Assembly (NCBI GenBank): GCA_964505765.1
Contig: CAZDJQ010000003.1
Span: forward strand, 1 to 46,565
Length of the DNA stretch: 46,565 bases
Origin: an uncultured Gammaproteobacteria bacterium
GTDB lineage: Bacteria > Patescibacteriota > Microgenomatia > UBA12405 > JAHJSD01
Reading direction: 5' to 3'
Shown piece by piece: positions 6,248 through 34,333 of this stretch (the stretch's first letter is position 1; each line of letters starts with the position of its first letter). The notes under the pieces were generated by a model. It did not search any database, was not told the origin of the DNA, and saw only the letters and a program-made list of their open reading frames with translations. The position numbers and the translations under genes were made by a program.

Positions 6248-6841
6248 CTATTTCTTCCGTTGAGTAACGATGTTATCAATTAATCCGTACTTGACTGCAT
6301 CTTCTGCTGTCAAATAAAAATCCCTATCAGTATCTCTCTCAATGACCTCAATTGACTGTACCGTGTGTTGAACCAAGATATTATTGAGCATCTTTTTCAT
6401 CCTGCTCATTTCTTTTACTTTAATTTCCATGTCAGATGCCTGCCCTTCTGCGCCTCCAAGAGGCTGGTGGATCATCATCCTCGCGTTGGGAAATGCCATT
6501 CTTTTCTCTTTTGTACCCCCAGCAAGAAGAACCGCACCCATCGAAGCAGCTTGACCTAAACAGATTGTTACAACATCACAGGAAACATATTGCATGGTAT
6601 CATAAATAGCCAGTCCTGCAGTAACCTGCCCTCCTGGACTGTTTATGTAAAAAAAGATATCTTTATCTGGATTTTCAGATTCTAAGAAAAAAAGCTGGGA
6701 AACAACAATGTCTGATACATCATCATTTATTACTCCTGTCAGCACGATAATGCGAGAGGACAGCAAACGGGAATAGAGGTCAACTTGCCTTGCTCCCTGA
6801 GGTGTTTGCTCAACAACGTAAGGAACCTTAATAAATGCCAT
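6248..6841 (-). CDS. clpP: ATP-dependent Clp protease proteolytic subunit ClpP (paralog 1)
   Basis: Full-length ClpP with an intact triad context: GQAASMG (Ser), MIHQPLGG (His) and [21 protein letters not shown] (Asp). I chose the start at MAFIKVP, which matches paralog 2 and has GGAAGGGGG 8 nt upstream. The ORF track extends to 6865. Confidence 0.93.
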
Positions 6842-6888
6842 ATCCATTGCCCCCTTCCTGTGCATGTATCTTTATCATAATAGACTAA

Positions 6889-7320
6889 TTACATCTCACC
6901 AAGTTTCTTGCCTCCAAATTTTTCTTGAATTATGTCATCGTATTTGTCTGCGGTGGAAGCCACTGCTTTTACAGCCACTTCAAGCTCTTTCCTGTTGAGA
7001 AAATCACCTAACAGCGTATGTTCGAAGAAAACCGCTCGAACTTCAGGTTGAAGGGAAAACTTGCCAAATATTATTTTCATGTTCTCAACAGACAGGTATT
7101 TCGTCAACTCAGCACTGGGTTCAGTATCTTTGTTTACTGGGGCAAGAACCCTAACCAAGGTTCGACCTTTAGTCCAATCCATTGGTGTGATAAATAACTG
7201 GGTACTTCCGGCATTAAGAACATAGTTATCTCTTTGATCCTTTAGATATTGACCAAAAGATTCATTGAGATATCTTTCAATTGTTGACCTTAAGGTTTTT
7301 AGAGCTTCGGACTCAGCCAT
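6889..7320 (-). CDS. YbjN-like (T3SS-chaperone-like) domain protein, paralog 1
   Basis: 143 aa. The C-terminal signature FGKFSL...FEHTLLGDFLNRKELEVAVKAVASTADKYDDIIQEKFGG is typical of the YbjN family. It lies 23 nt upstream of clpP. Confidence 0.65.
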   Translation of the reverse strand: MAESEALKTLRSTIERYLNESFGQYLKDQRDNYVLNAGSTQLFITPMDWTKGRTLVRVLAPVNKDTEPSAELTKYLSVENMKIIFGKFSLQPEVRAVFFEHTLLGDFLNRKELEVAVKAVASTADKYDDIIQEKFGGKKLGEM

Positions 7321-7847
7321 TTTTTCACCTCCCTTACAATACTTTACTTTGCTGCTGTGAAATCAGCTTGATGTTTATTACTGATCTATCTTGATAATTA
7401 TCATATCAAATTCAAATCAAGCTTGACAAGGGATTTCTTCACACTCTAAGTAACTGGCGCAATCGAAATCATCATCACTGATTTCACAGTTGCTCATGGC
7501 TGGCGTCGAATTTCAAGCCCGACCTTTACCAGGAAGGAGGGTCAGGATTTCTCATTTTTCTCCGTCGTGATTCGCATTCTCGCGTAAGATGATCACAGAT
7601 AATCCGTATCTTAGAAATTTCATGTGCCGTCCGAATTTTGCTGAACCGTTGCAAATTTATGCACACCGGGAGTTAGTGTGCGTGGGGCGGCTCAAATCGA
7701 AGGCCGACACCTCGCTCACCGATCTGTTGTAGTGGATACAGTTGATCGTCTCCGCCAGAATTTCTGAGAGGCAGATAACTTTTAAACAGGGAAGCGCCGT
7801 GAATACGTCGTGTCGCCTGGGAGAGTCGGGAATTGTCAACTATGTCG

Positions 7848-7949
7848 TCACCAACGACAATGAATTTTCATTTTTTTCATTGCGATATTGCTCTTTCTCT
7901 TCTTTTTTTGGATAACGGCTTTTCCCGCTACTCCTAAAGGTTTTTCCAT
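7848..7949 (-). pseudogene. 5' remnant of a NUDIX hydrolase gene
   Basis: The minus strand reads MEKPLGVAGKAVIQKK..., against MKKPLGVAGKAIIRKN at the start of the intact NUDIX gene (36683..37099). The DNA around 7905-7950 aligns with 37055-37100, and it sits in the same position directly downstream of a WD40-ZnF gene. It stops after 33 codons. Confidence 0.5.
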
Positions 7950-7972
7950 TTTAAATCCTTTCGGAATTTATT

Positions 7973-10570
7973 TTATTTGAGCTCCCTTCCGCAGTTTTTA
8001 CACCACCTCTCACCCGCCGAATTTATGTACCCGCATTTGCAGGTGATGGTGGTTTGCTTTTCCGATGAGATGTCTTCCTTCTTGGTAGAGGAAGTTTGAG
8101 CACGTCTGTCAGCTTTGAGATGTTCCAGCACATCCCAGATTTTTTGTTCTTTGGCTTTGAGTTCTTCTATTTTTTTAAGCTGCTCTTTTTTCCAGAACTC
8201 TCTTTTTTTTTCTGTAAGGTCAGAGGGAGGATAGCCCAGGTCCTCAAGGAGTCGGGTATACTGGTGTCTGACTTTATCGGCCTCAGAGAGGAGTTTTTCC
8301 CTGCTATCAGGTAATTTATCTTGTTTTTGTTCAGGCACTTTTTGTTCAGATGATTCTTTTTCGCTTGATGCTTCCGTGGATTCCTCGGGGAAAGCTTCTT
8401 TGCTTTGAGAAAGAGTGGTAGAGTCGAAACCAATGAGCTCTAATATGTAAAGGTTTCCTCCGGAATCTCCCCCACAAACATTGAGTCCATTCGGACTAAA
8501 GCCAACACAAAGAACCCATCCCAAAGCGGGAAAGGAAACTATTTTCTTTCCGGTCTTTAATTCCCAGAGAATTATGTTTCCATCGTAACTTCCCGTGACA
8601 ATGATGTCCCCATTAGGATTGAATGCGCAGGAATTACATCCTAATGAATGTCCCTTTATAGTTTTTATTTCCTCTCCGACCGAAGCATCCCAGAGTTTGA
8701 GAGTGTTGTCTTCACTTGCTGAGGCTATCATCTCCCCGTCCGGAGAAAATGCACAGGACGTGACCCAACTAGTGTGGCCTTTGAATGTGGTTAACTCTCT
8801 TCCCGATGCTACATCCCAAAGTCCAAGAGTTCCATCATCTCTTCCCGTAACGATGAGCTTTCCATCAGGAGAAAACGCGCAGGAATTAATCGTTCCTGTC
8901 ATACCATGTAAATTCCCCATTACTTTTCCACTCTTTGCATCCCAGATTTTGAGGATCCCGCCACTGCTCCCTGAAACGATGAGTTTTTCGTTTGGCGAAA
9001 AGGCGTAGGAGGTGATGGCGGTGTGGTCTTTGAGTGTCCTCAACTCAAGACCACTCTTTGCGTCCCAGAGTTTGAGAGTTTCGTCGCTGCTTCCTGAGAC
9101 AATAATTTCCCCGTTGGGACTGAAGGAGCAGCAGGAACACGCTTGTGCATGACCTTCTAGAGTTTTTATTTCACTCCCGGCTGCGACATCCCAAAGCTTA
9201 AGGATCTTGTCACTGCCTGCCGAGACAATCAAGCCTCCATCAGGAGAAAACGCGCAGGACTCCACCCAGTCTAAATGGCCTTGAGCGGATGCAGTCTTTT
9301 CAGCTACGGTTAAATTTCTTACAGCTTCGACATCCCAGAGTTTGAGGGTGCTGTCATCACTAGCAGAAATGATTTTTTTTCCATCGGGGAGAAGCACACA
9401 TTTGCAGATAGGGCTTGTGTGGCCTGCGAGCGATGCCGATTCCTTCCCTGTAGCCACATCCCAGAGCTTTATTGTTTTGTCGGCACTTGCCGAGACGATA
9501 CTTTCTCCCTCCGGTAAGAAAGCGCAGAAATTAACCAGATCGGCATGGCCTTTTAAAGTGGCGACCTCTTCTCCACATGCTGCGTCCCAGAGTTTAAGGG
9601 TTTCATCATCACTTGCCGAAACAATGAGCCTCCCATCAGGAGAAAAGGAGATGGAATTCACCGCTTCTTCGTGTCCTTCAAAGGAAGCCAACTCTTTTCC
9701 TGTCTGTATGTTCCAGAGCTTCAGTGTCTCGTCATCACTCGTAGAGAGGAGGAGCTTACCGTCGGGAGAAAAGTTAAAAGAATTGACCGAGTCCTCATGT
9801 CCTTTTAAAGAAGCCAGCTCTTTTCCTGTCTCTGCGTCCCAGAGTTTGAGAGTCTCATCATTGCTTGCCGAAACGATGAGCCTCCCATCAGGAGAAAAGG
9901 CGCAGAAATTAACTGAACCGGTGTGGCCTATGAGCGATGTCGATTGCTTTCCTGTGGATGCATCCCAGAGCTTGAGGGATTTATCAAGGCTTGCAGAGAC
10001 AATCATCTTTCCATCGGGTGAGAAGGCACAGGAATTGACCGGATCTGCGTGACCTATGAGTGCTGCGAATTCACGTCTGGCGGGCACATCCCAGAGTTTG
10101 AGGGTCCTGTCAAGACTCGCCGAAATCAGTTGGTTACCGCTGCGGTTAAAACTTAAGGAAGTGACAGGCCCTTTATGTCCTTTGAGTGTTGCCAACTCAC
10201 GGCCAGTAGCAACATCCCAGAGCTTAAGGGTATTGTCAAGGCTTGCTGAGACGAGATGCTTTCCATCAGAAGAGACTGCACAGGTGCTCAAACTTCTTTT
10301 ATGGCCTTTGAAAGTTAGCAAAAGGGCTCCCGATTCCCGTAACCGGCTGAGAAGGTGGATCCAGGGATTTGCGCCAGGATAAGTCCTTTTTTCCAGCTCA
10401 AAAGATATGATTTTTGAAATTGTTTCTTTCCCGCCGGCAGAATCTTCCCACTGCAAACGGTTGTAGAGCTGCTGCCAGAGCAAGCCAGGATCTTGGGTAA
10501 GATTATGGACTTCTTGTCTTAAAACTTTCAATATAACTTCAAGGATCCTTTGCTGCTCAAAGCGGCTCAT
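7973..10570 (-). CDS. WD40-repeat protein (about 14 repeats) with N-terminal adaptor helix and C-terminal RanBP2-like zinc finger (W1)
   Basis: 865 aa with 42-aa repeats (GH..V.SCAFSPDGK.IVSAS.D.TLKLWD). The N-terminus carries HNLTQDPGLLWQQLYNRLQW. A K/E/S-rich tail ends in CKCGYINSAGERWCKNCG. Confidence 0.92.
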   Translation of the reverse strand: MSRFEQQRILEVILKVLRQEVHNLTQDPGLLWQQLYNRLQWEDSAGGKETISKIISFELEKRTYPGANPWIHLLSRLRESGALLLTFKGHKRSLSTCAVSSDGKHLVSASLDNTLKLWDVATGRELATLKGHKGPVTSLSFNRSGNQLISASLDRTLKLWDVPARREFAALIGHADPVNSCAFSPDGKMIVSASLDKSLKLWDASTGKQSTSLIGHTGSVNFCAFSPDGRLIVSASNDETLKLWDAETGKELASLKGHEDSVNSFNFSPDGKLLLSTSDDETLKLWNIQTGKELASFEGHEEAVNSISFSPDGRLIVSASDDETLKLWDAACGEEVATLKGHADLVNFCAFLPEGESIVSASADKTIKLWDVATGKESASLAGHTSPICKCVLLPDGKKIISASDDSTLKLWDVEAVRNLTVAEKTASAQGHLDWVESCAFSPDGGLIVSAGSDKILKLWDVAAGSEIKTLEGHAQACSCCSFSPNGEIIVSGSSDETLKLWDAKSGLELRTLKDHTAITSYAFSPNEKLIVSGSSGGILKIWDAKSGKVMGNLHGMTGTINSCAFSPDGKLIVTGRDDGTLGLWDVASGRELTTFKGHTSWVTSCAFSPDGEMIASASEDNTLKLWDASVGEEIKTIKGHSLGCNSCAFNPNGDIIVTGSYDGNIILWELKTGKKIVSFPALGWVLCVGFSPNGLNVCGGDSGGNLYILELIGFDSTTLSQSKEAFPEESTEASSEKESSEQKVPEQKQDKLPDSREKLLSEADKVRHQYTRLLEDLGYPPSDLTEKKREFWKKEQLKKIEELKAKEQKIWDVLEHLKADRRAQTSSTKKEDISSEKQTTITCKCGYINSAGERWCKNCGRELK

Positions 10571-10606
10571 AGATGACTCAAATTGAGAAATTTTTATTTT
10601 TATATC

Positions 10607-10966
10607 TTAATCAATGAACTTTATAGAGCCATTATTTTTTATTTTGATCAGGTTTGATTTAACCCCATTTTTTTTTAGGGCATAAAAGAATGTTTTAAAC
10701 CCTTGCTTAAATTTTTTTTCTTGGCCAAATTCAATAACTCCCTTCAATACACTGCTATGGATAAAAAGAATTCTGTTGTATATATCGACAGCTATCGCTA
10801 TTTCTGCCTCCAGAATAGCTATGGCCGCTTTGGCCAATGCTTCAGCACCAATTTTCACATTCCCGGTTGCATAGGTATGTTCTATCAGCCCGCCCTTTTC
10901 GCTTCTTCTATAAATATTAAATACCTTTTCTATTTCAGCCTCATCCGGCCAATGGCCCTTTTTCAT
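10607..10966 (-). CDS. hypothetical protein
   Basis: 119-aa ORF in operon position between the YbjN-TM and WD40 genes. No family recognised. Confidence 0.45.
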   Translation of the reverse strand: MKKGHWPDEAEIEKVFNIYRRSEKGGLIEHTYATGNVKIGAEALAKAAIAILEAEIAIAVDIYNRILFIHSSVLKGVIEFGQEKKFKQGFKTFFYALKKNGVKSNLIKIKNNGSIKFID

Positions 10967-11063
10967 AATCTTATCTCCTTTCTAGTTTACAAAATATTAA
11001 AAATAATCCCTGACATGATACCCAGTCACCTGATTTTCATTGAACATACAGGCAAGCTTCTTA

Positions 11064-11963
11064 TCAACTGCCGCCCTGGGATTTGAACCAGAATTTCATT
11101 CGTTCCTGATCGTCACGGGCTTCCTCAGCAGTCACCCTGGGAAAGATAATTGCGCTGATAATCCGGGCCAGGAATATGCCGATTATGTATCCAATCAAAG
11201 CCGAAAGCCACCACATCCCCCACCATTGGTAGGTAATATAAAGCAGGCCGACGGCAATAATCGGATGGAAGAAAAAGAAAATAATACGTTTGATTTTGTT
11301 AGGTTCAGTTATTATGTCCGGAATAGCCCTTGCCACCATATACTGTACCAAGAGATAGGTAAAAATAGCTAAAGCTAAAGACCTAATTTGTGTATAAGCA
11401 TAGATTCCTGACCCAATACCCACAAAAAATCCAAGAATGGAAAAAGTAATCTTTATCTTTCTGATACGAGCCTTGAGGTCCTTCTTACGGAGCCCTGCGG
11501 TAATCGGACTGAGTGCACCTATATAGCTCCCCCATCTTGCTGCCTTAGGTGTTGACGGCTCAATCACTTCAGAAGAAAAGGTTTCAGCCACTATATCATT
11601 GTATTTGTCAGCCACTTCAGCAACAGTGTTCACTGCTCTTTCAAACTCATTATAGTCAAGGTTATCCAGCGGCCTTTTTATTTGAAGGTCAATTGTTCCA
11701 ACTTCCTCATTTATGGCAAAAGCGGCGTCTTTAGTCTCAGAAAGATTCAGTGTTAGGAGCTTTCTGAAAAGGGGAAGTAAATTCTCTTGGGGAAGATGAA
11801 TCACCGGAGAGGAAACCAACAGCAGGTCTTCATTCGGAATAGCCACAACCGCAACAGGGGCATTGCCTTTCTTCAGCATACGCTTATTATTTTCGTCAAG
11901 TTCTCCCCATCCGCCTTTCTTTAAAAATTTATTGACTTTATCTAGCTGTTTTGAATTTCTCAT
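11064..11963 (-). CDS. YbjN-like domain fused to a C-terminal multi-TM region, paralog 1
   Basis: 299 aa. The N-terminal half is YbjN-like: NAPVAVVAIP...LPLFRKLLTLNLSETKDAAFAINEEVGTIDLQIKRPLDNLDYNEFERAVNTVAEVADKYNDIV. The C-terminal half holds three to four hydrophobic helices. It is a paralog of 42468..43370. Confidence 0.6.
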   Translation of the reverse strand: MRNSKQLDKVNKFLKKGGWGELDENNKRMLKKGNAPVAVVAIPNEDLLLVSSPVIHLPQENLLPLFRKLLTLNLSETKDAAFAINEEVGTIDLQIKRPLDNLDYNEFERAVNTVAEVADKYNDIVAETFSSEVIEPSTPKAARWGSYIGALSPITAGLRKKDLKARIRKIKITFSILGFFVGIGSGIYAYTQIRSLALAIFTYLLVQYMVARAIPDIITEPNKIKRIIFFFFHPIIAVGLLYITYQWWGMWWLSALIGYIIGIFLARIISAIIFPRVTAEEARDDQERMKFWFKSQGGS

Positions 11964-11972
11964 TAATAGATA

Positions 11973-14201
11973 TTAACCTCCTTTGTGTTTATTTGAGTTC
12001 ACACCCACATTTGCGGCACCATTTGGCCGAGGCATCATTAACTGCACCGCAGTCTTCACTCGGACATATCTTTTTGCCTTCTTCTTGGATCGTTGCTCTT
12101 TTTCCTTCTTCTTTCTTTTCTTTTTTACAGGTTTCTTTTTAAAAGTAATTTCATTATCAGAGACACTGATCTTGACCACATCATGCTCGGAAATCTTGCC
12201 CTTGATTATTTCATTGGCCAGAGTCTCCCGTACAAAATCTTCAATTGTCCTTCTTAAGGGACGCGCGCCCATTGTTGGGTCGTAGCGGGCATTGACCAGA
12301 AAATCCAATGCTTTTTTGTCAGCTTCAACCTTAATTGGAATCCTCGATAGCATGACCGAGGCAATGTTTCGCAGATTCTCCTTACTCAGGGGATTGAAGA
12401 TAATAACCTCATCAATCCGGTTCATAAATTCCGGGCTAAGTCTCTTCCTCAATTCCTTTTCTATATCACCGCGGAGGTTGTCTATGGAGACGCCTTTTTC
12501 CCGTTCTTCCTTTGATCTGATATCGACCCCACGGGGTCGATACTCACTTATCCTGTCTGATCCGATATTTGATGTCATAACAACCACGGCATTTCTAAAA
12601 TTAACCGGTCTCCCCAATCCATCTGTTAAACGTCCCTCCTCGAGGATATGGAGCAAGATGCGCAAGACTTCTGGGTGGGCCTTCTCGAGCTCGTCAAAAA
12701 GGACCACGGAATAAGGCTGCTTTTTAACTGCCTCGGTTAATTGTCCCCCCCTATCCGAATCGACGTAGCCTGGGGGGGATCCGGTGAGTCGGGAGATCGT
12801 ATGCTTTTCGTAGAATTCCGACATATCGATTTGAATCAAGCGGTCCTCGTCATCAAAAAGAATCTCTGCCAAGGTTTTGGCTAACTCTGTCTTGCCTACT
12901 CCTGTCGGGCCCAGGAACAGAAATGATCCAATGGGTCTTTTGGGATTGCCAAGCCCGGAGCGAGAGGTCCGGATGGACTGCGCAATTTCCGTTACAGCTT
13001 CATCCTGCCCGACGATTCTCTTCTTAATCAATTTTTCCAGTGCGAGAAGTTTCTCTCCCTCTTTTTCAGTCAGTTTGCCGGCCGGGATGCCGGTCCATTC
13101 AGATACGACCCGGGCTACATCCTCAAACGAGATTAAAATCGATTGATTCGCCTCTGTCGGATTTCCTTCTTCCGAAAATAAAGCCCTTCTCTCTTCCTTG
13201 GTAAGCTCCCCGAGATCGCTCAACCAATAATGAAGCCTCAATTTCTTCTGCGAGCATGCTTGGTCGATAGCATCTATTGCCTTGTCCGGTAAACGCCTAT
13301 CCCCGATGTATCTAGAGGGAAGTTCTACAGCGGACTTTAAAGCCTCCTCTAAAATCTTCACTCTGTGAAGCTCTTCGTATTTTGGCTTGAGACCTTCCAG
13401 AATCTCAAGAGTCTCATCTGTTGTCGGCTCTCCAATAAAAACCGGCTGGAATCGGCGTGCCAAAGCTTTATCTTTCTCGAAATATTTTCGATATTCATCG
13501 TAGGTTGTCGCACCGATACACTTCATGACTCCTCGGGATAAAGCGGGTTTCAGAATATCAGCCGCTCCCATAGCCGCACCTCGAGCCCCCATCAAGGTGT
13601 GAATTTCATCAATAAAAATAATGAGGTTGGGATTTTTTTCCGCCTCTTTGATAAGCTGCTGCCATTTTTTTTCAAACTGGCCCACATACTTGGCTCCGGC
13701 AGCGACCACCGCCACCATTTCGACAGTCCGAATCCTTTTCTCCGACAAAGCAGGAGGGGCCTTTTCAGAGATAATGACCTGTGCCAAACCTTCTACAACC
13801 GCTGTTTTACCTACCCCTGCATCGCCGATCAATATAGGGTTGTTCTTGCGCCTGCCAGAAAGTATCTTCATCATGGTAAGAATTTCGTCCTCGCGGCCAA
13901 TAATGGGATCAAGGGTTCCTTGTTCAGCATCTGCGGTAAGGTCGCGGCCAAGGTTTTTAAGTATGCCTGAGGTTTTATCTATTCCAGGCTGTTCGACCGT
14001 CTTTCGTTCCGCATAAAATTTCTTTGGCCACTCACCCTTCCTCATCATCTCTCTCAGATTCTGAGCCAGTTTATCCAATTCAGCCACACCTAAGAAGAGA
14101 TGGTCGGTTCCGACATAGTCATGCTTTAAATCCCTGGAAATGCGCTCAGAATAAGATAGCACAAGCTTCCCTGATTCGCCAAGGTTGCTGATATTATTCA
14201 T
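11973..14201 (-). CDS. ClpC/ClpA-type double AAA+ unfoldase, paralog 1 (shortened N-domain; zinc finger lies in the -1 frame)
   Basis: D1 has GDAGVGKTAVVEGLAQ and IIFIDEIHTL; D2 has GPTGVGKTELAKTLA and VVLFDELEKAHP. The linker between D1 and D2 is short (ClpC-like, not ClpB-like). It is 742 aa against 868 aa in paralog 2. The last 34 aa or so of the annotated frame are unrelated to paralog 2, and the zinc finger is encoded out of frame (see findings). Confidence 0.88.
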   Translation of the reverse strand: MNNISNLGESGKLVLSYSERISRDLKHDYVGTDHLFLGVAELDKLAQNLREMMRKGEWPKKFYAERKTVEQPGIDKTSGILKNLGRDLTADAEQGTLDPIIGREDEILTMMKILSGRRKNNPILIGDAGVGKTAVVEGLAQVIISEKAPPALSEKRIRTVEMVAVVAAGAKYVGQFEKKWQQLIKEAEKNPNLIIFIDEIHTLMGARGAAMGAADILKPALSRGVMKCIGATTYDEYRKYFEKDKALARRFQPVFIGEPTTDETLEILEGLKPKYEELHRVKILEEALKSAVELPSRYIGDRRLPDKAIDAIDQACSQKKLRLHYWLSDLGELTKEERRALFSEEGNPTEANQSILISFEDVARVVSEWTGIPAGKLTEKEGEKLLALEKLIKKRIVGQDEAVTEIAQSIRTSRSGLGNPKRPIGSFLFLGPTGVGKTELAKTLAEILFDDEDRLIQIDMSEFYEKHTISRLTGSPPGYVDSDRGGQLTEAVKKQPYSVVLFDELEKAHPEVLRILLHILEEGRLTDGLGRPVNFRNAVVVMTSNIGSDRISEYRPRGVDIRSKEEREKGVSIDNLRGDIEKELRKRLSPEFMNRIDEVIIFNPLSKENLRNIASVMLSRIPIKVEADKKALDFLVNARYDPTMGARPLRRTIEDFVRETLANEIIKGKISEHDVVKISVSDNEITFKKKPVKKKRKKKEKEQRSKKKAKRYVRVKTAVQLMMPRPNGAANVGVNSNKHKGG

Positions 14202-14405
14202 AATTCTACCCTAAGACAGGCCGTATTGAAAAGTCTAAAATTAATAGAGTTCAATGCAATGATTAACAGAATAATCTTATTAACTTATCTTTGTTAAATT
14301 CTAAAACAGATACAATGAAATGTCAAAGATCCCCTCGACAGTTTGCCTGATTGAAGCTCATCCGCAGTCGTCCGTGTCACTAATGTATTGAACGAGTACA
14401 AACTT

Positions 14406-14434
14406 TTGACAACACTTTTTATAAACTATATAAT
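14406..14434 (+). promoter_or_regulatory. sigma70-type consensus promoter for the TerB-like gene
   Basis: TTGACA (14406-14411), a 17-nt spacer, then TATAAT (14429-14434). It sits about 77 nt upstream of the ATG at 14511, which has AAGGAG upstream. Confidence 0.5.
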
Positions 14435-14510
14435 GATACAAAAAGGGAAGTATTAATCTAATTTAACCAATTTAGCTTAATTTTCTCAAATTATTTTAAG
14501 GAGATATTTT

Positions 14511-14933
14511 ATGGGTATATTTGAAGGCAAGGAAACAAAAAAAAGAAAGAGTCATTTCAAGAACTTAGTGGCATTATCAATGGCTGATGGAGTTCTTAGA
14601 GAAAGTGAAATTAAATTGCTTTCTCTTATAGGCAGCCGCTTGAATTTATCCAAAAAAGAAATCAAATCTGTTTTTCAAAATCCAAGTAAAATACAGTACA
14701 ATCGTCCAACTGATTCAAAGGAAAGATTTTCCCAGCTTTTTGACTTAATCGCATTGATGATGGTGGATGGTAATATCGACAGACGGGAAATGGATTTTTG
14801 TATGACCGTTGCTTCTTCTTTGGGATTTAGACCGACTGCTGTTCAAGAATTAGTGGATAAAATCGTTAAGGCCATAAAGGATTCTGTCCCTAAAGAAAAG
14901 TTGAGAACCGAAATGTCTGATTTCCTAGACTAG
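14511..14933 (+). CDS. TerB-like (tellurite-resistance TerB / DjlA N-terminal type) domain protein
   Basis: 140 aa with two ADG/VDG...E repeats (ALSMADGVLRESEIKLL and ALMMVDGNIDRREMDF), typical of TerB-family helical bundles. Confidence 0.55.
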   Translation: MGIFEGKETKKRKSHFKNLVALSMADGVLRESEIKLLSLIGSRLNLSKKEIKSVFQNPSKIQYNRPTDSKERFSQLFDLIALMMVDGNIDRREMDFCMTVASSLGFRPTAVQELVDKIVKAIKDSVPKEKLRTEMSDFLD

Positions 14934-15080
14934 GATTCATTCTGCTCGTTGCGTTTTAACCTCCCAAAGATTTCTTCATGGAATCATTCTATCTACTAAA
15001 AAAAAGATTCAATTCATTTGATCCAGTGTTCAGCTTTCACCAAAAGATTGAATGTTTTGATTTTGCAGTTTTATCAGCAC

Positions 15081-16247
15081 TTATTTCAAAGAGATTGAAT
15101 TTTCGGCGATTTTTTCCATTTTTTTATCAGAAGGTTCATTAACAGCTATGATGTAAATTTTGTCGTTCTGTTTTAAAATATAGTCTTCAGGATAGTCCTT
15201 CTTCTGTGGATTGATTATCCAATTTTCTTTCATTTTCATCTCAGGCTTTCCATCTTTATCCAATATTGCATTCCCGAATTCGTCCATTTTGGGGACTTCT
15301 ATTTTGGTTTCCACGGCTATAAGAGTCATGTCTTCATCATGGAGGATTTTGGCAGCTTTCCTAAAACCCATGTTCACAAATCCCTTTGGCACGGACTTTT
15401 TATAGAATTCGCTACCAGAAGTGAACTCCAATAGTTCGTTAAGTATCCAAGAAAGGCCATGATTCAGTGCAGAGGCGACCATCAAATTTCCGCTCATGCG
15501 GTCTAAGCAAATATACTCATCGACTTGAGCATGTTCCAGATGCTTTTTGTATTCAGAGTTCAAGAGCTGGACACATGTATAGACATCCCGGCGCAAAGCT
15601 TCGACGGCGAGTGTCATCAGAACAGCCTGGGCATCAGGATTGATTCCAGCCTGAAACCCAGGTCCGATCTGTGATAAAATAATAGCTGTATTTGCTTTCA
15701 TTATACCAGCTCTTTTTAAGTCTTCCTCTTTAGTGGGGTCCCCGGAAATAAAATCCACTATGTCCTCATCGACAGGTTTTTTATCCAAATCTGCCAGTAT
15801 AACGATGGGGCGTCTTTGTTCGATATCTGAAGTTAGAAGCTGTTTGATTATATTTTTACCTTGAATATTCCAACCACAAATAATGATGTGATTTTTATAG
15901 CTTACCTTCTTCATTATTCTTCCCTCCCTTAGAGATAAATTGACAAACCAAGAGACTATTTTGGCTCCAATAATAGTAATAAAGACAACTCCAGCAATTA
16001 AACCAACTGCACCAGTAAACTTGGCCAGACCGCTTTGCCATTCTAAACTCCCGAGTTCTCCTAGGAACAATGGTAAAACATCCGTAAGGCCTTCGAAGAT
16101 AGTGACATTCATTTCAATAGCTAAGATTAAGGCACATAACAACATCAAACCGACGGAAACGATCAGAGAAATCCAGACTGGATACCTGTATATTTTATTA
16201 ACCAGGATCCTTAACGCTTTTCTTAAATCTATACGCCGAGAACTCAA
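15081..16247 (-). CDS. CASTOR/POLLUX-like membrane protein with RCK (TrkA-N type) domain
   Basis: N-terminal TM helices are followed by HIIICGWNIQGKNIIKQL...PIVILADLD...ISGDPTKEEDLKRAGI, an RCK Rossmann domain with ICGW as in CASTOR/POLLUX. No TVGYG-type K+ filter was seen. Confidence 0.65.
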   Translation of the reverse strand: MSSRRIDLRKALRILVNKIYRYPVWISLIVSVGLMLLCALILAIEMNVTIFEGLTDVLPLFLGELGSLEWQSGLAKFTGAVGLIAGVVFITIIGAKIVSWFVNLSLREGRIMKKVSYKNHIIICGWNIQGKNIIKQLLTSDIEQRRPIVILADLDKKPVDEDIVDFISGDPTKEEDLKRAGIMKANTAIILSQIGPGFQAGINPDAQAVLMTLAVEALRRDVYTCVQLLNSEYKKHLEHAQVDEYICLDRMSGNLMVASALNHGLSWILNELLEFTSGSEFYKKSVPKGFVNMGFRKAAKILHDEDMTLIAVETKIEVPKMDEFGNAILDKDGKPEMKMKENWIINPQKKDYPEDYILKQNDKIYIIAVNEPSDKKMEKIAENSISLK

Positions 16248-16265
16248 GGTGATCCTCCGTTAAAT

Positions 16266-17360
16266 TTAAAATATGAAGTTTCTAACCTGAAATAAGATAA
16301 AAATCCCAAGGATGAAAACCACAATGATGGTTATGGTGTCCCAGCTCATATAGAAATAGACTTTTTTTGGTCTGTGAATCAACCCGATGATAACCAAACT
16401 GGTAAGGATTATGCCTAAAACAGCCGTGAGAACATGAACTGGAGAAACGCTTAGAAAAATATTGCCTCCTCTGAAGAAAAAATCGCTGATGGGAATGATG
16501 AACATATTAAGTATATTGCTGCCGAGAATGTTGCAGACAGCCATGTCAAAAGCCCCAATTTTGACAGCCCCAGCTGTGACTGCGACTTCCGGCAACGAGG
16601 TTACGAAAGCGAGGAAAAGACTGCCCACAAATGTGGCCCCCAAATCGACTCGTAAGTTAAACAGATAAAAAGGACTTGAAAGTGAGTCACCGATTTCTAC
16701 CAACCAAATCCCCGCTAAGACAACGATAACCGCAAATATAAAAAAAATACTAATGATCTTGAAATTCGACATTTTCGAGACATCATTCGTTTCCGTTTTT
16801 GCCGTCTTCTGCCTGCCAGAACGTTCTGTTTCTGTAATTTTAGAAGTTTTTCTTCCTAATTTTGTGATCAGAAATACGGCTGCCAGGTATATACTAAATA
16901 TGAGAAAACTGCAAAAGTAACCCAACCCTTCTCCAAACAATCCGATTACCTTAACTAAAATAATGGCTGCAATCACTATGCTCATTAATAGAATACCAAA
17001 TCCAGCGGTTAGAATATTTTCTATTCTCACATGGGCCAAGATGTGTTCCCTCTTTTGGAGTATATCTAAGATAGCAATGATAACCAAATTAAAAACATTG
17101 CTGCCTAAGACATTGCCTAGGGCAAGGTCCGGCTGAAGGGCTATAGTAACCGCCCCGATGTTGGTCGCTAGCTCAGGTAAAGAGGTGAGCATGGCCAATA
17201 TCACGATGCCGATCCATATTTGTCCCAAACCGGTCCTTTTTCCTATCTCATCTCCGTAGAGCGATATTTTGAAACCAGCAAAAAAGATGACGGAAGCACA
17301 CAAGAGAAACTCTAGAATCAGCCATATACCGCCTTCGCCAAATAACATCCTTAAGAACAT
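16266..17360 (-). CDS. CaCA-family cation/Ca2+ exchanger (YrbG-like)
   Basis: Two alpha-repeats: TSLPELATNIGAV...GNVLGSNVFNL and TSLPEVAVTAGAV...CNILGSNILNMF. About 10 TM helices surround a charged central loop. Confidence 0.85.
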   Translation of the reverse strand: MFLRMLFGEGGIWLILEFLLCASVIFFAGFKISLYGDEIGKRTGLGQIWIGIVILAMLTSLPELATNIGAVTIALQPDLALGNVLGSNVFNLVIIAILDILQKREHILAHVRIENILTAGFGILLMSIVIAAIILVKVIGLFGEGLGYFCSFLIFSIYLAAVFLITKLGRKTSKITETERSGRQKTAKTETNDVSKMSNFKIISIFFIFAVIVVLAGIWLVEIGDSLSSPFYLFNLRVDLGATFVGSLFLAFVTSLPEVAVTAGAVKIGAFDMAVCNILGSNILNMFIIPISDFFFRGGNIFLSVSPVHVLTAVLGIILTSLVIIGLIHRPKKVYFYMSWDTITIIVVFILGIFILFQVRNFIF

Positions 17361-24953: not shown

Positions 24954-25547
24954 TTATTTCTTGCGCTTTTCAATGATTGTGTCGATTAATCCGTATTTTA
25001 CTGCATCCTCTGGGGTTAGGTAAAAATCCCTGTCCGTATCCCGGGCAATAATCTCCATCGATTGGCCTGTGTGTTGAACCAATATTTCATTTATCCTCTT
25101 TTTTATCCTGTTCATCTCCTTGACCTGAATTTCCATGTCAGATGCCTGACCCTTTGCTCCTCCCAGAGGCTGGTGGATCAGCATCCTGGCGTTGGGAAAA
25201 GCCATCCTTTTCCCTTTTGTCCCTCCGGCCAGAAGAACAGCTCCCATTGAGGCTGCTTGACCTAAACAAATTGTAGCCACATCACAGGAAACATATTGCA
25301 TGGTGTCATAAATAGCCAGTCCTGCTGTAACTTCTCCCCCCGGGCTGTTTATATAGAAAAAGATGTCTTTATCAGGATCTTCAGATTCTAAATAAAAAAA
25401 CTGAGAAACAACAATATCGGCAACATCGTCGTTTATTATCCCCGTTAATAAGACAATTCGAGCCGACAGCAAGCGCGAATACAAATCAACTTGCCTGGCT
25501 CCCTGCGGTGTTTGCTCCACTACATAAGGAACTTTTATAAAAGCCAT
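24954..25547 (-). CDS. clpP: ATP-dependent Clp protease proteolytic subunit ClpP (paralog 2)
   Basis: 197 aa with [15 protein letters not shown] and [21 protein letters not shown]. By eye, most positions are identical to paralog 1. Confidence 0.93.
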
Positions 25548-25583
25548 GTTTAAGTCTCCTCCTAGATTAGATCACTCGCCTGC

Positions 25584-26015
25584 TCACTGTTCCCCATACT
25601 TCTTGCCTCCGAATTGCGCTTTAATTTCATCATCGTATTTGTCTGCTATGTAAGCAACTGACTTAACAGCAACTTCAAGTTCTTTCCGGTTAAGAAAATC
25701 TCCTAGCAGAATATGCTCAAACAGGATTGCCTGCCGGTCCGGGTCAAGCGAAAATTTACCAAATACTACTTTTATATTCTCATAAGCCAAAAACTTTGTC
25801 AGCTCCCCAGTTATTTGAGCCCCGCGATTAACTACTGACACAACTCTAACAATAGTTTGCTCCTTAATCCAATCTACTGGAATTATAAATACCCGGGCAC
25901 TTCCGGCCTGAAGAATGTAATTGTTACGGTCGTCCTTAAGATACGAGCCGAAAGATTCTTTGAGATATTTTTCTATTGTAGACCTTAATGTTTTTACGGC
26001 ATCAGACGCTGCCAT
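25584..26015 (-). CDS. YbjN-like domain protein, paralog 2
   Basis: 143 aa, colinear with 6889..7320 (FGKFSL...FEHILLGDFLNRKELEVAVKSVAYIADKYDDEIKAQFGG). It lies 36 nt upstream of clpP paralog 2. Confidence 0.65.
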   Translation of the reverse strand: MAASDAVKTLRSTIEKYLKESFGSYLKDDRNNYILQAGSARVFIIPVDWIKEQTIVRVVSVVNRGAQITGELTKFLAYENIKVVFGKFSLDPDRQAILFEHILLGDFLNRKELEVAVKSVAYIADKYDDEIKAQFGGKKYGEQ

Positions 26016-26191
26016 TTTTTCACCTCCTTTTTATTTTTTGCTTTTGCCATGTAAAATCAGCGGAAAATATCTTATTTGCTGATTAACCAGTGTTATAACC
26101 ATATCAAACCAGAATTAAACATAGCAAGTAATTTATTCGTTAAATTCCATAGTTAACATAAGTCTGTTCATTATTGTCCCTGTCTCTGCTT

Positions 26192-28795
26192 TTATTCTTC
26201 CCTCCTTATTTCCAGGCCTTCTTTGGCCAGGAATTCTGGTATCTTACGCACGGTGGCTCGATCCCACTCTTTGACGTCGTCAGGAAGCTCTGACCAGCTC
26301 ACAAGATAAGGACTCTTCTTCTTGGCAGTATCTTTTTTCTCTCCCCATCTCCACCCTTCAAGCAGTCTTTCGACATTCCACCGCCCATGCTCCATTTCTG
26401 CCAGAAACTCAACCTCGTCTTCGGTGAACGATAGTAACCTGATTTTTCGATCGGTTACTTTTTGCGCTGTACACCCAATATGACGAAGCTTCTCGAAAAT
26501 GTGGTCAGCCTGTTGAGCATTAGATTCCTTCAAATTAACCGGCAATTTCTCCCAGTCCGCCATCGCCGGATCGTCGGTCTTTAGACCATCCTTTTTGGTG
26601 CGTCGATACTCCTCATGAATTTCCTTAGCCAGTGTCTTCCTAATATCTTCCGCCAGTTTGGAAGCTCCCAAACCGATGAAAGCCCTAACCGTCATAGCAT
26701 CAGCAGGAAGAAGTGCCAGATTTTTCGAATCGACCCACTTTTCATCTTGAAGTAACTTGGCTGCCTCTCGTCCGCTTTCTTCTGCAACCCCCACTGTGGC
26801 TCCCAGAGCTAAGGCAATTCTGTATTCAATGGCTGAAATCATGCCCCCGTTAATACCGAAAACTTTAACCTGAGATGGATCAATGCCGGCAGAAATTATA
26901 TCAATCCAATTTTGCAAGGGCTCCATTGGACTAAAGCCGCTTCCCTCAGTTTTACGAAGTTCGCTGTACCTCCGGTCAACAGTGGCATCAGGGGGGATAA
27001 GTTTAGGAATATAACCAATCGTCCGGATTTTCTCCCGATATTTTTCTCCTGTTTCACCGACCAATCCGCTTATCCCTTGCTTTGTCCCTCCACTTATTAC
27101 CGTACCCTCATATTCTTTAAAACCTTCCTGCATTAAATGTCTGTAGGCTTTCATCTGTTCTTCAATAGATGGGTCACAGCCACCGGCCACAATAACAACA
27201 GGTCCTTGAATAGATTCGTACTGACTTAAGGTCAGCTCTCTTGCCTTCTCTATTGCTTCTTTAGCCTCTTTTGCTTTTTCTTTCTGTTTTTTAATTTTCT
27301 TTGTCTTCTCTTTTTCTTCTTTGCTTTCTTTGACTTCCTCAAGAGTTTCCTTGGCTTTTTTCTCAGCCCTTGATGCTTTACCAATTAAAAGCAATCGCCG
27401 GACCCATTCATACCCTGAGAGCTCATTGGCAACATTTTTGAGTCTTTCCAATGAGGCAAGTGCCGTCTCAATCATAAAGAGTGCCGAACTGATTTGGATG
27501 GCTTTTGCGTAGGCTTCAAGGCTTTTATAAGGCTTGTTTAATAAAAGATAAAACTTGCCCATCATATAAAAGGCCCATGGCAGATTAACGCCAACATCAG
27601 CCTGGTCATTACATCTCTGGATAGCTGAGGTAATCACAGGACTCAAGAGTGAGACTATGGATGTATTCCTGGCTTGAGAAATTTCTAAATCCAAATAGTT
27701 CTCCAATGGATACGGGTCTGACGGATCTAGTTCAAAAGCATGACGGTATAGCTTTCGCACCTTTTCTTCGTCGATTCCCTTCCAGGTGCCGGCCAGGGAA
27801 GCCAGGGCATCCACGTCTTCATTGGGGGGCTCGCATGCCTTCTCCAGATAGCGCTGGCCTTTCTTAAAGCGGCGGCCATTGGGTCTGTGTTTGTTCATTT
27901 TACAAAGAGCAACACCCAGGTCTCTCAGGATAGCCGGCTCCTCTGAATCACGGTACTTGGAAAGCACCTCATCGGCCTTCGGCCAGTCTCCAAGGGTAAT
28001 GGCTAACTTTCCGATGCGGCCGGCGATTTCCACGTTATCAGAATCGTGTTCCAGGATTATCTCCAGCAATTTTATTTCATCCTGCATTTGTTCTTCAGTC
28101 ATGTAAGCCCCGTAGCTTGCGGCGTAGGCGGATAACCCCTCTTTTATTTTAGAAAAGTTTTTATCTGCGCTTTCCAGCATTGCCGCTACCCCGGCAAATT
28201 CGCGCTCCCACTTTGAGGGTATTTGAAAAGAACTTTTATAAGCCAACACATGGGCCATATCCGCCCAAGCGTGCTCAAGAATGGTTCTCACCTGGACTTC
28301 AGCCCATGGATTAGGAAATTTCTTTTCATCCAACAGCACCGGCGGCACCTCTACCTTGACATCTTTATTGGGAAAAACCCCAGGCCTAAATTTGATAATA
28401 TAGTGCACAGAACGGTAACCAAACTCAGTGGGTTTTAGCCGTTGACTAACATCTATTGTGTTATCTTCATCAATCCGGAAATTATTCCTGATAAACTCAG
28501 ATATGGCTCTAACTTCATCAGCGGTATGAACAATGACTCGCCCACCACACAAGTCAGTCAACTGATTTACCGGATCTTTATACTTAGCCTTTTTCCGCTG
28601 ACATTTTTCGGCAAAACTGGCAATGGCCTTGGGCCTTGTTTGCACAATAGCCAAAGGGGCAAGCTTTTTTGCTACTTTTTTGAGAACCTGTTCCAAGACT
28701 TCAGCGTAGAGCTTATAATTATTGTAACGCCTTTTATATTCTTCAACCTGCTGGCGGGTCCATTCTTTGCATTTAATATCTGTTTTCTTAGTCAT
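26192..28795 (-). CDS. RelA/SpoT-type nucleotide pyrophosphokinase - TPR - SLOG-like - RyR-domain fusion protein
   Basis: - N-terminus: TRPKAIASFAEKCQRK...LTDLCGGRVIVHT...EFGYRSVHYIIKF...AEVQVRTILEHAWADMAH, the RelA_SpoT synthetase fold.
- Middle: TPR-like helices and a K/E coiled coil.
- Then: VVIVAGGCDPS...GTVISGGTKQGISGLVGE...GINGGMISAIEYRIALALG, a LOG/SLOG-type Rossmann domain.
- C-terminus: MEHGRWNVERLLEGWRWGEKKD..KKKSPYLVSWSELPDDVKEWDR, a RyR repeat. Confidence 0.8.
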   Translation of the reverse strand: MTKKTDIKCKEWTRQQVEEYKRRYNNYKLYAEVLEQVLKKVAKKLAPLAIVQTRPKAIASFAEKCQRKKAKYKDPVNQLTDLCGGRVIVHTADEVRAISEFIRNNFRIDEDNTIDVSQRLKPTEFGYRSVHYIIKFRPGVFPNKDVKVEVPPVLLDEKKFPNPWAEVQVRTILEHAWADMAHVLAYKSSFQIPSKWEREFAGVAAMLESADKNFSKIKEGLSAYAASYGAYMTEEQMQDEIKLLEIILEHDSDNVEIAGRIGKLAITLGDWPKADEVLSKYRDSEEPAILRDLGVALCKMNKHRPNGRRFKKGQRYLEKACEPPNEDVDALASLAGTWKGIDEEKVRKLYRHAFELDPSDPYPLENYLDLEISQARNTSIVSLLSPVITSAIQRCNDQADVGVNLPWAFYMMGKFYLLLNKPYKSLEAYAKAIQISSALFMIETALASLERLKNVANELSGYEWVRRLLLIGKASRAEKKAKETLEEVKESKEEKEKTKKIKKQKEKAKEAKEAIEKARELTLSQYESIQGPVVIVAGGCDPSIEEQMKAYRHLMQEGFKEYEGTVISGGTKQGISGLVGETGEKYREKIRTIGYIPKLIPPDATVDRRYSELRKTEGSGFSPMEPLQNWIDIISAGIDPSQVKVFGINGGMISAIEYRIALALGATVGVAEESGREAAKLLQDEKWVDSKNLALLPADAMTVRAFIGLGASKLAEDIRKTLAKEIHEEYRRTKKDGLKTDDPAMADWEKLPVNLKESNAQQADHIFEKLRHIGCTAQKVTDRKIRLLSFTEDEVEFLAEMEHGRWNVERLLEGWRWGEKKDTAKKKSPYLVSWSELPDDVKEWDRATVRKIPEFLAKEGLEIRREE

Positions 28796-28823
28796 GAAAA
28801 TTCCTCCGTTTTATTTTATTCAT

Positions 28824-31409: not shown

Positions 31410-31439
31410 TTCTCGTCTTTGAAAAAGTTATCATTCATA

Positions 31440-32189
31440 TTAAGCAAGATCGGATTCCGGCAGCAGTTCCGTCGATTTGAACTGCACCCTGATTTTTCCA
31501 CTGTGACTCATCTTTCGCTTCACCCGGTTGGCTGAAATGAAAGATTGCTCCAGAATTGAAACAAACTCCAGCGGTTCTTCCTCTTCAACCCTGAGGATCC
31601 AGTCTGTACCGGGAGCGGGAGGCGTCGCCGTGTTCTTTTTCTGACCAATAACCGACAATTCTACTTTGTGTCCCCTGAACTCAAACTCCCAGAATGAACT
31701 GTTCGTACCCCTGTTGGAAACTGGCTTGACGCCCAGGCGTATCTGCAGCCACTCCAGGAGCCGATCCTCAAAGGCGTCTGCCACAGGGTCGCCAGAACGA
31801 ACAGCTCGAACAAGATTGTTCCTCAAAGACTCATCGGGCTCGTCGCCGTCCTTGTTGAAACCATGATTTTCCACCGGCTTTATCTCTTGGATCGTTTGGG
31901 GATTTACCGGAGAAATCCTGGCTTGCTTTGCCTTTTTCCGTTGGCGCCTTCGGAGCTGCCACCATGGACGCTTCTGCGATGATCCCTCTATCGTAACCTT
32001 GAATCCACAATTTGGACAATAAAAATTGTTTTTTTCGACACAGCGATCACAATGTATAAAACCACAATTTCCACATTTTGCATAATGCATGGCCATTGTG
32101 TCCGGATTTTCTTTCGCTACAGGATTCCCTCCCGGGATCTCCGAAAGGGAAATAAACCTGTTACATGACGGACAAATGTTAATACCCAT
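31440..32189 (-). CDS. zinc-ribbon protein with unknown C-terminal domain
   Basis: 249 aa. The N-terminus has ICPSCNRF, KCGNCGFIHCDRC and YCPNCGF (three to four CxxC pairs), then a basic linker and an unrecognised domain of about 130 aa. Confidence 0.55.
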   Translation of the reverse strand: MGINICPSCNRFISLSEIPGGNPVAKENPDTMAMHYAKCGNCGFIHCDRCVEKNNFYCPNCGFKVTIEGSSQKRPWWQLRRRQRKKAKQARISPVNPQTIQEIKPVENHGFNKDGDEPDESLRNNLVRAVRSGDPVADAFEDRLLEWLQIRLGVKPVSNRGTNSSFWEFEFRGHKVELSVIGQKKNTATPPAPGTDWILRVEEEEPLEFVSILEQSFISANRVKRKMSHSGKIRVQFKSTELLPESDLA

Positions 32190-32273
32190 TTTTTTGCCTC
32201 CTCAAGAGCCCGTTGAATAATGACTTATTAAATAAAATCGTTAAATCCAACGATTTCCCGGATAGAACGACTG

Positions 32274-32498: not shown

Positions 32499-32515
32499 TT
32501 ATTCCTCCTGTCCAA

Positions 32516-34324: not shown

Positions 34325-34333
34325 TATTCTCCT

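Follow-up and report, generated by a model that had tools for sequence, protein, structure and literature searches.

The zinc finger that lies out of frame at the end of a ClpC-like ATPase gene, here called paralog 1, is very probably the consequence of a single genuine and lineage-specific deletion of 73 nt, a case of ordinary gene damage, as judged from the alignment of the gene with its relatives. The gene is part of the window, by which we mean the whole stretch of DNA that was analysed (46,565 nt).

The zinc ribbon and its two reading frames

The features that define the 3' end of the gene are the following:

11973..14201, minus strand: paralog 1, a ClpC-like class-I AAA+ ATPase; zero-frame ORF of 742 aa
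11973..12081, minus strand: out-of-frame tail of the zero frame, about 36 codons, KAKRYVRVKTAVQLMMPRPNGAANVGVNSNKHKGG and stop; it reads the former zinc-finger codons in their +1 frame
11989..12081, minus strand: remnant of the zinc-ribbon coding sequence in the -1 frame, EGKKICPSEDCGAVNDASAKWCRKCGCELK and stop; four of four cysteines kept and the stop at its ancestral position

The zero-frame product has the C-terminus KKKAKRYVRVKTAVQLMMPRPNGAANVGVNSNKHKGG, and its tail extends into the SD of the next gene (AAGGAGG, 11983..11977). Following a TAA at 12141..12139, the -1 frame stays open between 12138 and the TAA at 11991..11989, and reads KETCKKEKKEEGKRATIQEEGKKICPSEDCGAVNDASAKWCRKCGCELK. These limits are the ones given in an earlier note on this DNA, whose translation of the frame is correct except for one extra lysine (EEGKK RATIQ, where EEGK RATIQ is to be read). 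The note had also recognised the -1 frame as encoding the zinc finger of the family, and this holds: the same C-terminal ribbon is found in frame at the end of four further ORFs of the window (7973..10570, 37101..40451, 40799..42109 and 43400..46006) as well as in most close homologs. The cysteines of the -1 frame are arranged as a CxxxxC and a CxxC pair (CPSEDC...CRKC), and the profile scores, for a domain that is very short, are E = 0.0025 and 18 bits for Zn_Ribbon_1 (cut-off 25) and E = 4.9e-4 and 20.1 bits for DUF7577 (cut-off 28).

On the branch leading to paralog 1, five synonymous and three non-synonymous changes were counted in the zinc-finger frame from the nucleotide alignment (binomial p = 0.019 versus a roughly neutral 0.77), a synonymous bias consistent with translation of this frame until recent times. 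The alternative frame used by the tail is also free of stops in the relatives L003, L014 and L106. At the protein level, peptides of the zero-frame tail would include YVR and TAVQLMMPRPNGAANVGVNSNK, and those spanning the junction from the zero to the -1 frame would include ...PVKKEKKEEGK and ICPSEDCGAVNDASAK.

A 73-nt deletion between short repeats

The analysis of the frame break involves three further features, paralog 2 being used as an internal reference:

12070..12088, minus strand: junction of the deletion, CCAAGAA / GAAGGCAAAAAG; the break lies between 12082 and 12081
12120..12126, minus strand: A_AAA_AAG heptamer in X_XXY_YYZ register (GTA AAA AAG at 12128..12120)
43400..46006, minus strand: ClpC-like paralog 2, 868 aa, with a full Clp_N (55.6 bits, 2 stretches); its K/E/P linker is long and its zinc ribbon is in frame

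The alignment of paralog 1 to L003, L014, L106 and L113 is gap-free over TTTAAAAAGAAAC through CCAAGAA, and then again over GAAGGCAAAAAGATATGTCC to the stop. Between these two blocks exactly 73 nt of linker (24 codons + 1) are missing, the gap being matched by 73 letters in each of the four relatives. Since 73 = 3x24+1, everything 3' of 12081 is shifted, which places the zinc finger in the -1 frame. The segment lost here is flanked in the relatives by imperfect direct repeats (GAAGRCA ... GAAGGCA), which in L106 read GAGAA/GAAGACA on the left and GGGC/GAAGGCA on the right, and the window retains a single copy, GAAGGCA. Collinear flanks, one contiguous gap of a length not divisible by three and repeats at both ends are the marks of a frame-disrupting deletion. 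The 20 nt 3' of the junction, the A5 run among them, are identical to those of L014, L106 and L113, and on both sides of the junction all A runs agree in length with those of the relatives (A6 at 12126..12121, A5 at 12075..12071). The frame break is located roughly 40 nt downstream of the heptamer, and neither at the heptamer nor in a homopolymer. A recent inactivating indel, one of the explanations put forward in the earlier note, is supported by these data, its nature being a loss of 73 nt between 12082 and 12081 and not a change of 1 nt in an A run.

The ancestral gene would have comprised the ATPase, a K/E/P-rich linker and the C-terminal zinc ribbon in one frame, as in paralog 2 and in the nearest relatives. 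A segment of 73 nt between the 7-nt imperfect repeats would then have been lost together with one repeat copy, and the geometry of the repeats points to replication slippage or microhomology-mediated deletion as the mechanism. The present product would be a ClpC-like ATPase ending in about 36 nonsense residues, and the zinc-ribbon codons would be an untranslated fossil, which looks intact because the event would be recent relative to the divergence from the relatives. We infer that the deletion is indeed recent.

Comparison with relatives

The nearest homologs in the protein search (P0002-P0006) are proteins of 852 aa with 78-80% identity and a zinc finger in frame, as is the zinc finger of the four nearest relatives in the nucleotide alignment (L003, L014, L106 and L113; 80-82% amino acid identity), and an in-frame zinc finger is also present in most homologs down to 63% identity. 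Searches of 5.8 billion protein clusters, GTDB genomes and JGI metagenomes yielded no relatives closer than about 82%. Among some 30 close homologs, including eight distinct loci read as DNA, there is no second case of the two-frame layout; P0020 (788 aa, with the same ...TKTGK ending as P0013) was compared at the protein level. A comparison of orthologous loci had been proposed in the earlier note, and its outcome speaks against a programmed shift, as the zinc finger of the close homologs is either in frame or absent and the arrangement is not shared. A few apparent candidates for frameshifted members were rejected: the short homologs L008/P0017 and L009/P0013 lack a zinc finger in all frames, in L011 and L012 (P0030 and P0032) the finger belongs to a distinct FHA-ZnF ORF, and the odd match length of L113 is due to masked N bases.

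The ATPase core, a second deletion and the neighbourhood

Two other features bear on the state of the gene and on its surroundings:

14075..14085, minus strand: second deletion junction, with one GGCTGAATTGG copy left where the relatives have two (GGCTGAACTGG ... GGCTGAATTGG)
11064..11963, minus strand: CesT-like gene (CesT 1.6e-09), hydrophobic in its C-terminal half, downstream of paralog 1

Both AAA+ modules of paralog 1 (D1 and D2) are intact, as evidenced by the motifs GDAGVGKT/FIDEIH and GPTGVGKT/LFDELEKA read in the translation and by Pfam matches to AAA_2 (2.3e-66), AAA (2.2e-22, 2 stretches), AAA_lid_9 (7.1e-24) and ClpB_D2-small (1.6e-15). The match to Clp_N is confined to residues 19-43 (21.4 bits), which falls short of a complete double-repeat N-domain. 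Nucleotide alignment and protein sequences show that paralog 1 has also lost some 330 nt of Clp_N, or about 110 codons, through an in-frame deletion between 11-nt repeats.

On the paralog-1 branch the N/S ratio of the AAA+ core is 9/63, which corresponds to purifying selection and is as low as in the relatives (5/31, 2/13 and 4/16); paralog 1 is therefore not a long-dead pseudogene, and we rejected a whole-gene pseudogene on the same grounds. Some selection for a product that acquires its zinc finger by slippage may also be at work. The number of private substitutions at sites that are invariant elsewhere is somewhat high (8/28 for a nearest neighbour at 89%). The core may belong to an unfoldase that still works in spite of having neither N-domain nor zinc finger, or its decay may have only just begun.

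In relatives the CesT-like gene accompanies the ClpC-like gene as a conserved partner, the same order being observed in L002-L007; a contig matching 11500..12093 at <90% probably corresponds to the CesT-like partner gene of paralog 2. ClpP paralogs are located near by, at 6248..6865 and 24954..25547. A known defence system was considered for the region and rejected, PADLOC giving no more than scattered matches to candidate families. Several unrelated proteins of the neighbourhood end in the same zinc ribbon, and this apparently undescribed neighbourhood is the more interesting biology.

The heptamer and ribosomal frameshifting

The presence of A AAA AAG in X XXY YYZ register at 12126..12120, as described in the earlier note, was confirmed on the minus strand. 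At the aligned position the relatives have GTC or GTT AAA AAG, the sole difference being a synonymous third-position change to GTA. The in-register heptamer occurs 16 times in the 13,092 codons of the window ORFs, versus 5.5 occurrences expected from codon frequencies; the intact linker of paralog 2 contains three in-register A6N heptamers, and A_AAA_AAA is found in the same tail of three of the eight distinct relatives with an intact frame. No stem-loop or pseudoknot, which a programmed site would have at a distance of about 5-9 nt, was detected 3' of the heptamer in the fold of 12126..12020 (MFE -15.2 kcal/mol, z = -1.11, with 28 of 200 shuffles as stable), in agreement with the absence of a hairpin remarked upon earlier, and in the same fold the first 45 nt or so downstream are essentially unpaired. 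An SD-like stimulator (GGAGG, AGGAG or GAGG), to be expected some 10-14 nt upstream, is absent from the 20 nt 5' of the heptamer (ACTTTTAAAAAGAAACCTGT), and the window contains no tRNA genes, tRNA-Lys isoacceptors included. We judge the heptamer to be coincidental and not a recoding signal; it would be a by-product of lysine-rich coding plus one synonymous change from GTC or GTT to GTA.

We consider it unlikely that a compensatory or programmed -1 shift at this heptamer, reading EKKEEGKRATIQEEGKK, yields a zinc-finger-bearing isoform beside the zinc-finger-less one (a 'pseudo-pseudogene'). The register of the heptamer is correct, and its position is within the sole stretch in which a shift would work (12138..12082), where the linker is K/E-rich in both frames, making a trans-frame product plausible as a protein. 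Retention of the four cysteines, of the stop and of synonymous-biased substitutions in the zinc-finger frame is a pattern that continued translation would equally give, and the ATPase core is under purifying selection. Furthermore, in E. coli no heptamer is more prone to shifting than A_AAA_AAG where AAA and AAG are both decoded by one tRNA-Lys (PMC5009743). However, the deletion 40 nt downstream already accounts for the frame break, and neither a 5' SD-like element nor a 3' structure accompanies a layout which some 30 close homologs, eight distinct loci at the DNA level among them, do not share. The heptamer is also over-represented rather than avoided in the window and recurs in the linker of paralog 2, so that it appears to be tolerated and not very slippery here, and only one synonymous third-position change separates it from the sequence of the relatives. 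In E. coli, the same heptamer is present in 68 genes, and in canonical translation frameshifts arise spontaneously in vivo at a rate of about 1e-4 to 1e-5 (PMC9307594). Programmed frameshifting, one of the three options of the earlier note, is not supported, given that no relative shares the arrangement, no stimulator is present and the heptamer is at a background frequency and one synonymous change away. Spontaneous slippage at a low level may occur on the heptamer.

A narrower version, which we regard as distinctly improbable, is that spontaneous -1 slippage at A_AAA_AAG or at a nearby A_AAG, within the 19-codon stretch 12138-12082, restores a small and selected amount of zinc-finger ATPase, with GTC>GTA as a compensatory change. 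If true, one gene would supply both a zinc-finger-less and a zinc-finger-tagged ATPase.

Sequence error and transcriptional slippage

A sequencing or assembly artefact, with a true genome in which the zinc finger is in frame, could be suspected from the purine-rich and low-complexity nature of the tract, and is very unlikely. The difference is a clean loss of 73 nt with repeat flanks and no change in run length, the homopolymers match those of the relatives in register, and a repeat of 7 nt is far under assembler k-mer sizes. Moreover, the Logan contig SRR7048220_62249 is base-identical to positions 8973..17201 of the window (an independent assembly; contigs drop minor variants, and an intact allele may co-exist), and the exact 742-aa protein is present on contigs from two samples. 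The homopolymer sequencing error envisaged in the earlier note is contradicted by the A-run lengths, by this identical assembly and by the product seen in two samples. Transcriptional slippage, in which RNA polymerase would gain or drop an A and restore the frame in part of the mRNA, has an exceedingly low probability, as productive slippage in bacteria requires runs of about 9 or more A/T, whereas those available here are of just 5-6 (12126..12121 and 12075..12071), a length that is ubiquitous in the window, and are devoid of conservation.

The deletion of 73 nt thus remains the reading on which an annotation may be based: paralog 1 would be described as a C-terminally frameshifted and N-terminally deleted ClpC-like paralog, and neither as a programmed-frameshift gene nor as an error to be 'repaired'. 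It also calls for caution, as a textbook slippery heptamer upstream of an out-of-frame conserved domain mimics recoding and is commonplace in lysine-rich linkers; here it is the alignment to relatives that exposes what is very probably the true cause, a repeat-mediated deletion.

Comparison with known systems

With the -1 frameshift of E. coli dnaX, paralog 1 shares the heptamer itself and its register, its location within coding sequence and the open -1 frame that follows. However, the 5' SD-like element and the 3' stem-loop of dnaX are absent here, the arrangement is not conserved in relatives, and whereas the shift truncates the dnaX protein, in paralog 1 it would append a domain. In addition, the frame break of paralog 1 has a visible mutational cause, the 73-nt deletion 40 nt downstream. 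The likeness to savior or compensatory frameshifting and to 'pseudo-pseudogenes' (Atkins et al. 2016, PMC5009743) lies in a gene broken by an indel with a shift-prone site upstream of the break, although for paralog 1 some full-length product is conceivable only in principle.

Compared with ClpC/ClpA-type class-I unfoldases, the two AAA+ modules with Walker A/B, AAA_lid_9 and ClpB_D2-small are shared, and a match to the UVR/M-domain is absent here. Paralog 2 and the relatives possess Clp_N, which is mostly gone from paralog 1. The zinc ribbon is C-terminal and common to the WD40 and FHA proteins of the neighbourhood; among Clp ATPases a zinc module is already known from ClpX, which has an N-terminal zinc-binding domain. 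The aligned putative docking site is P[LVF]GV in the relatives and PRGV in paralog 1, a loop whose role in ClpP docking we assume from ClpA, ClpC and ClpX, and the putative docking tripeptide of paralog 1 thus starts with an arginine (PRGVD versus PLGVD) and not with a hydrophobic residue.

A distinct scenario from classical whole-gene pseudogenisation is also apparent, as only the C-terminal appendage is lost and the 690-residue ATPase core is open and under purifying selection, which amounts to a truncation. There is a likeness to genes cut by a deletion between short direct repeats, with a frameshifted C-terminus as the outcome: paralog 1 has the same single contiguous loss, here between 7-nt imperfect repeats, of a length not divisible by three and with collinear flanks, and it also carries a second repeat-bounded deletion.

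Two reading frames at the 3' end of ClpC-like paralog 1

11973..14201, minus strand: paralog 1 ORF, 742 aa, with two AAA+ modules, AAA_lid_9 and a ClpB_D2-small domain (Pfam)

The annotated (zero) frame of paralog 1 ends in ...ITFKKKPVKKKRKKKEKEQRSKKKAKRYVRVKTAVQLMMPRPNGAANVGVNSNKHKGG and a stop. The -1 frame, open from 12138, directly after a TAA at 12141..12139, down to a TAA at 11991..11989, translates as KETCKKEKKEEGKRATIQEEGKKICPSEDCGAVNDASAKWCRKCGCELK and a stop, which is the family zinc ribbon; the same ribbon terminates, in frame, four other ORFs of the window, namely three WD40 proteins and the ClpC-like paralog 2 (43400..46006). The zero frame reads GTA AAA AAG at 12128..12120, placing the heptamer A_AAA_AAG (12126..12120) in X_XXY_YYZ register. 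The two-frame arrangement described in the earlier note is thus confirmed on re-reading in all its elements (zero-frame end, open -1 frame, zinc ribbon and heptamer register), except that its -1 translation carried one K in excess.

The sequence of paralog 1 is reproducible at contig level across assemblers and samples: a Logan contig (SRR7048220_62249) is base-identical to the window over 8973..17201, Logan contigs from two samples encode precisely the 742-aa product, and the sampled words of the region are 100% present in two microbial-mat runs. A homopolymer sequencing error can therefore be rejected, given the identical Logan contig, the exact product in two samples and run lengths that are as in relatives. 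Short contigs (~3x) 99-100% identical to 11556..11907 were also found in two runs of other studies (X3 and X4, aquatic and freshwater-sediment metagenomes), and therefore the organism, or this locus, is not restricted to microbial-mat samples.

A 73-nt deletion and the zinc ribbon of relatives

The decisive comparison is a nucleotide alignment of the paralog 1 tail with its four nearest relatives (L003, L014, L106 and L113), in which the ribbon is in frame. The window aligns with all four without gaps over TTTAAAAAGAAAC and the whole K-rich tract up to CCAAGAA, and again in a second gap-free block running from GAAGGCAAAAAGATATGTCC to the stop, whose first 20 nt, A5 run included, are identical in L014, L106 and L113. 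Between these blocks exactly 73 nt present in all four relatives are missing from the window; as 73 corresponds to 24 codons plus one nucleotide, everything downstream is put in the -1 frame, matching the observation. The missing segment opens with GAAGACA in L106 and has GAAGGCA behind it; one copy of the repeat is retained in the window. On the aligned sequences, gap and repeats bear the mark of a deletion that took place between short direct repeats. Its junction, between 12082 and 12081, is located some 40 nt 3' of the heptamer; this, together with the gap-free alignment, indicates that the zero frame is ancestral across the entire A-rich tract and that nonsense is confined to the final ~36 codons. 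The recent indel considered previously is the explanation that holds, in the form of a 73-nt deletion at 12082|12081 and not of a run-length change in the A tract.

Using the trans-frame protein of paralog 1 as query, the closest homologues in the protein search were P0002-P0006 (852 aa, 78-80% identity, 99% query coverage); paralog 2, at 74%, is more distant. L014, L106 and L113 (80-82%) were added by scanning GTDB genomes and JGI metagenomes, the ribbon being in frame in all three, and neither these scans nor the protein search returned a relative above ~82%. At the protein level nearly all homologues, down to 63% identity, carry the ribbon in frame. Three short ones do not (P0017, P0013 and P0020): the DNA of the first two (L008, L009) has no zinc finger in any frame and a NUDIX gene comes directly after, and P0020 (788 aa), known from protein sequence alone, ends ...TKTGK as P0013 does. 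No other family member read as DNA has an out-of-frame ribbon. Two side observations concern this set. L014 (CAYGBE010000106.1, 80%), the closest relative in genome collections, is labelled 'uncultured archaeon', all others being bacterial (Bacteroidales, Syntrophomonadaceae and others), and its 7.6-kb contig is probably mis-binned. P0028 (ENA contig, 709 aa) is frameshifted mid-D2, after which ~150 residues of R/G-rich nonsense follow; real or artefactual, this is a separate case, unrelated to the paralog 1 linker.

The heptamer as a candidate frameshift site

At the aligned position the relatives read GTC AAA AAG or GTT AAA AAG, so that the heptamer results from a synonymous third-position substitution with unchanged run length. 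No SD-like element occurs in the 20 nt before it and no structure follows it (fold z = -1.11, the first ~45 nt being essentially unpaired), which bears out the previously noted absence of a stimulatory hairpin. Across the 13,092 codons of the window ORFs there are 16 in-register copies of A_AAA_AAG, where codon frequencies predict 5.5; the intact linker of paralog 2 has three in-register A6N heptamers, one being A_AAA_AAG at 43616, and A_AAA_AAA is found in the tail of 3 of 8 distinct intact-frame relatives. In E. coli, 68 genes contain A_AAA_AAG, and spontaneous frameshifting in vivo during canonical translation amounts to about 1e-4 to 1e-5 (PMC9307594). Given this frequency and the lack of stimulators, the heptamer is unremarkable. 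Its high shiftiness requires a single tRNA-Lys decoding AAA and AAG (PMC5009743); there are no tRNA genes in the window. Trace slippage is physically possible, and nothing points to selection for it; compensatory low-level frameshifting, an idea taken from PMC5009743, has a low probability. Programmed -1 frameshifting is thus unsupported, there being no 5' or 3' stimulator and no conservation in relatives at a heptamer that is common.

State of the gene

Paralog 1 has a second deletion, in frame, of about 330 nt (110 codons) from the Clp_N domain, between two GGCTGAAYTGG copies which the relatives both retain and of which paralog 1 keeps one, at 14085..14075(-); Pfam matches Clp_N at residues 19-43 only, while paralog 2 gives two complete stretches. 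There are also eight private substitutions where 25 homologues are invariant (e.g. L180W, S295P, G326W, V658R), rather many for a protein that shares 89% core identity with its nearest neighbour. Residues 574-578 (~12475..12490(-)) read PRGVD, and P[LVF]GVD in paralog 2 and all close homologues; we take this site, by analogy with other Clp ATPases, to be the ClpP-docking loop, and the change may mean loss of ClpP coupling.

On the paralog-1 branch, polarised with paralog 2, the core shows 9 non-synonymous and 63 synonymous single-step changes, a ratio resembling that of relatives (5/31, 2/13, 4/16). The zinc-finger segment, counted manually in its own frame on the four-relative alignment, shows 3 and 5, respectively (binomial p = 0.019 against a roughly neutral 0.77; Fisher p = 0.09 against the core). 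These patterns say that purifying selection acted on core and ribbon over most of the branch; hence the deletions happened recently, or the core continues to be used. As judged from sequence, paralog 1 could be either a working N-less, ribbon-less ATPase or a gene just beginning to decay.

Gene neighbourhood and shared ribbon

24954..46006, minus strand: conserved neighbourhood
6248..14201, minus strand: partial second copy
7991..8041, 37116..37166, 40823..40873 and 43418..43471, minus strand: zinc ribbon copies
L011 3749..4207 and L012 5357..5818: ribbon on an FHA protein whose gene directly follows the ClpC-like one

The ribbon is a C-terminal element of ~25 residues (C-x1-4-C ... WC-x2-CG-x-[ED]L[KD], then stop) that terminates unrelated architectures in one neighbourhood: three WD40 proteins, the ClpC-like ATPase and, in the more distant L011 and L012, a small FHA protein, where it is the end of a separate ORF immediately downstream. 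It has the look of a common docking or recognition tag for a putative system. The neighbourhood comprises ClpC-like-ZnF, a CesT-like membrane protein with a hydrophobic C-terminal half, WD40-ZnF proteins with a common ~85-aa N-terminal domain, NUDIX, DUF4062-NACHT, TrkA_N-RyR, a multi-zinc-ribbon protein, RelA/SpoT-SLOG-RyR and ClpP. This order recurs in relatives (L002-L009), which come from Bacteroidales MAGs and from metagenomes of sediment and aquatic origin. In PADLOC there were only marginal, scattered matches to candidate families (PDC-S07, PDC-S33, PDC-M37B), and no published description of this gene combination was found in the literature. With several unrelated proteins sharing a terminal ribbon, the neighbourhood merits attention in its own right.

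Two WD40-ZnF proteins, 37101..40451 (1116 aa) and 40799..42109 (436 aa), both minus, have near-identical N-termini (MRFGMNRSEQKTVLE...) and a common spacer segment (SAKQSLLETNDVSQTK.KVKAEKPEKKIES), suggestive of a recent tandem duplication in which domains were reshuffled. There are also two ClpP paralogs of close similarity, 6248..6865 and 24954..25547 (-), each adjoining one ClpC-like cluster, the former having an N-terminal extension, MHRKGAMD.

Comparison with known systems

With dnaX-type programmed frameshifting, which is characterised by stimulator and conservation, the paralog 1 site has the heptamer alone in common and neither of these two features; it fits instead the commonplace pattern of a gene cut short by deletion between repeats.
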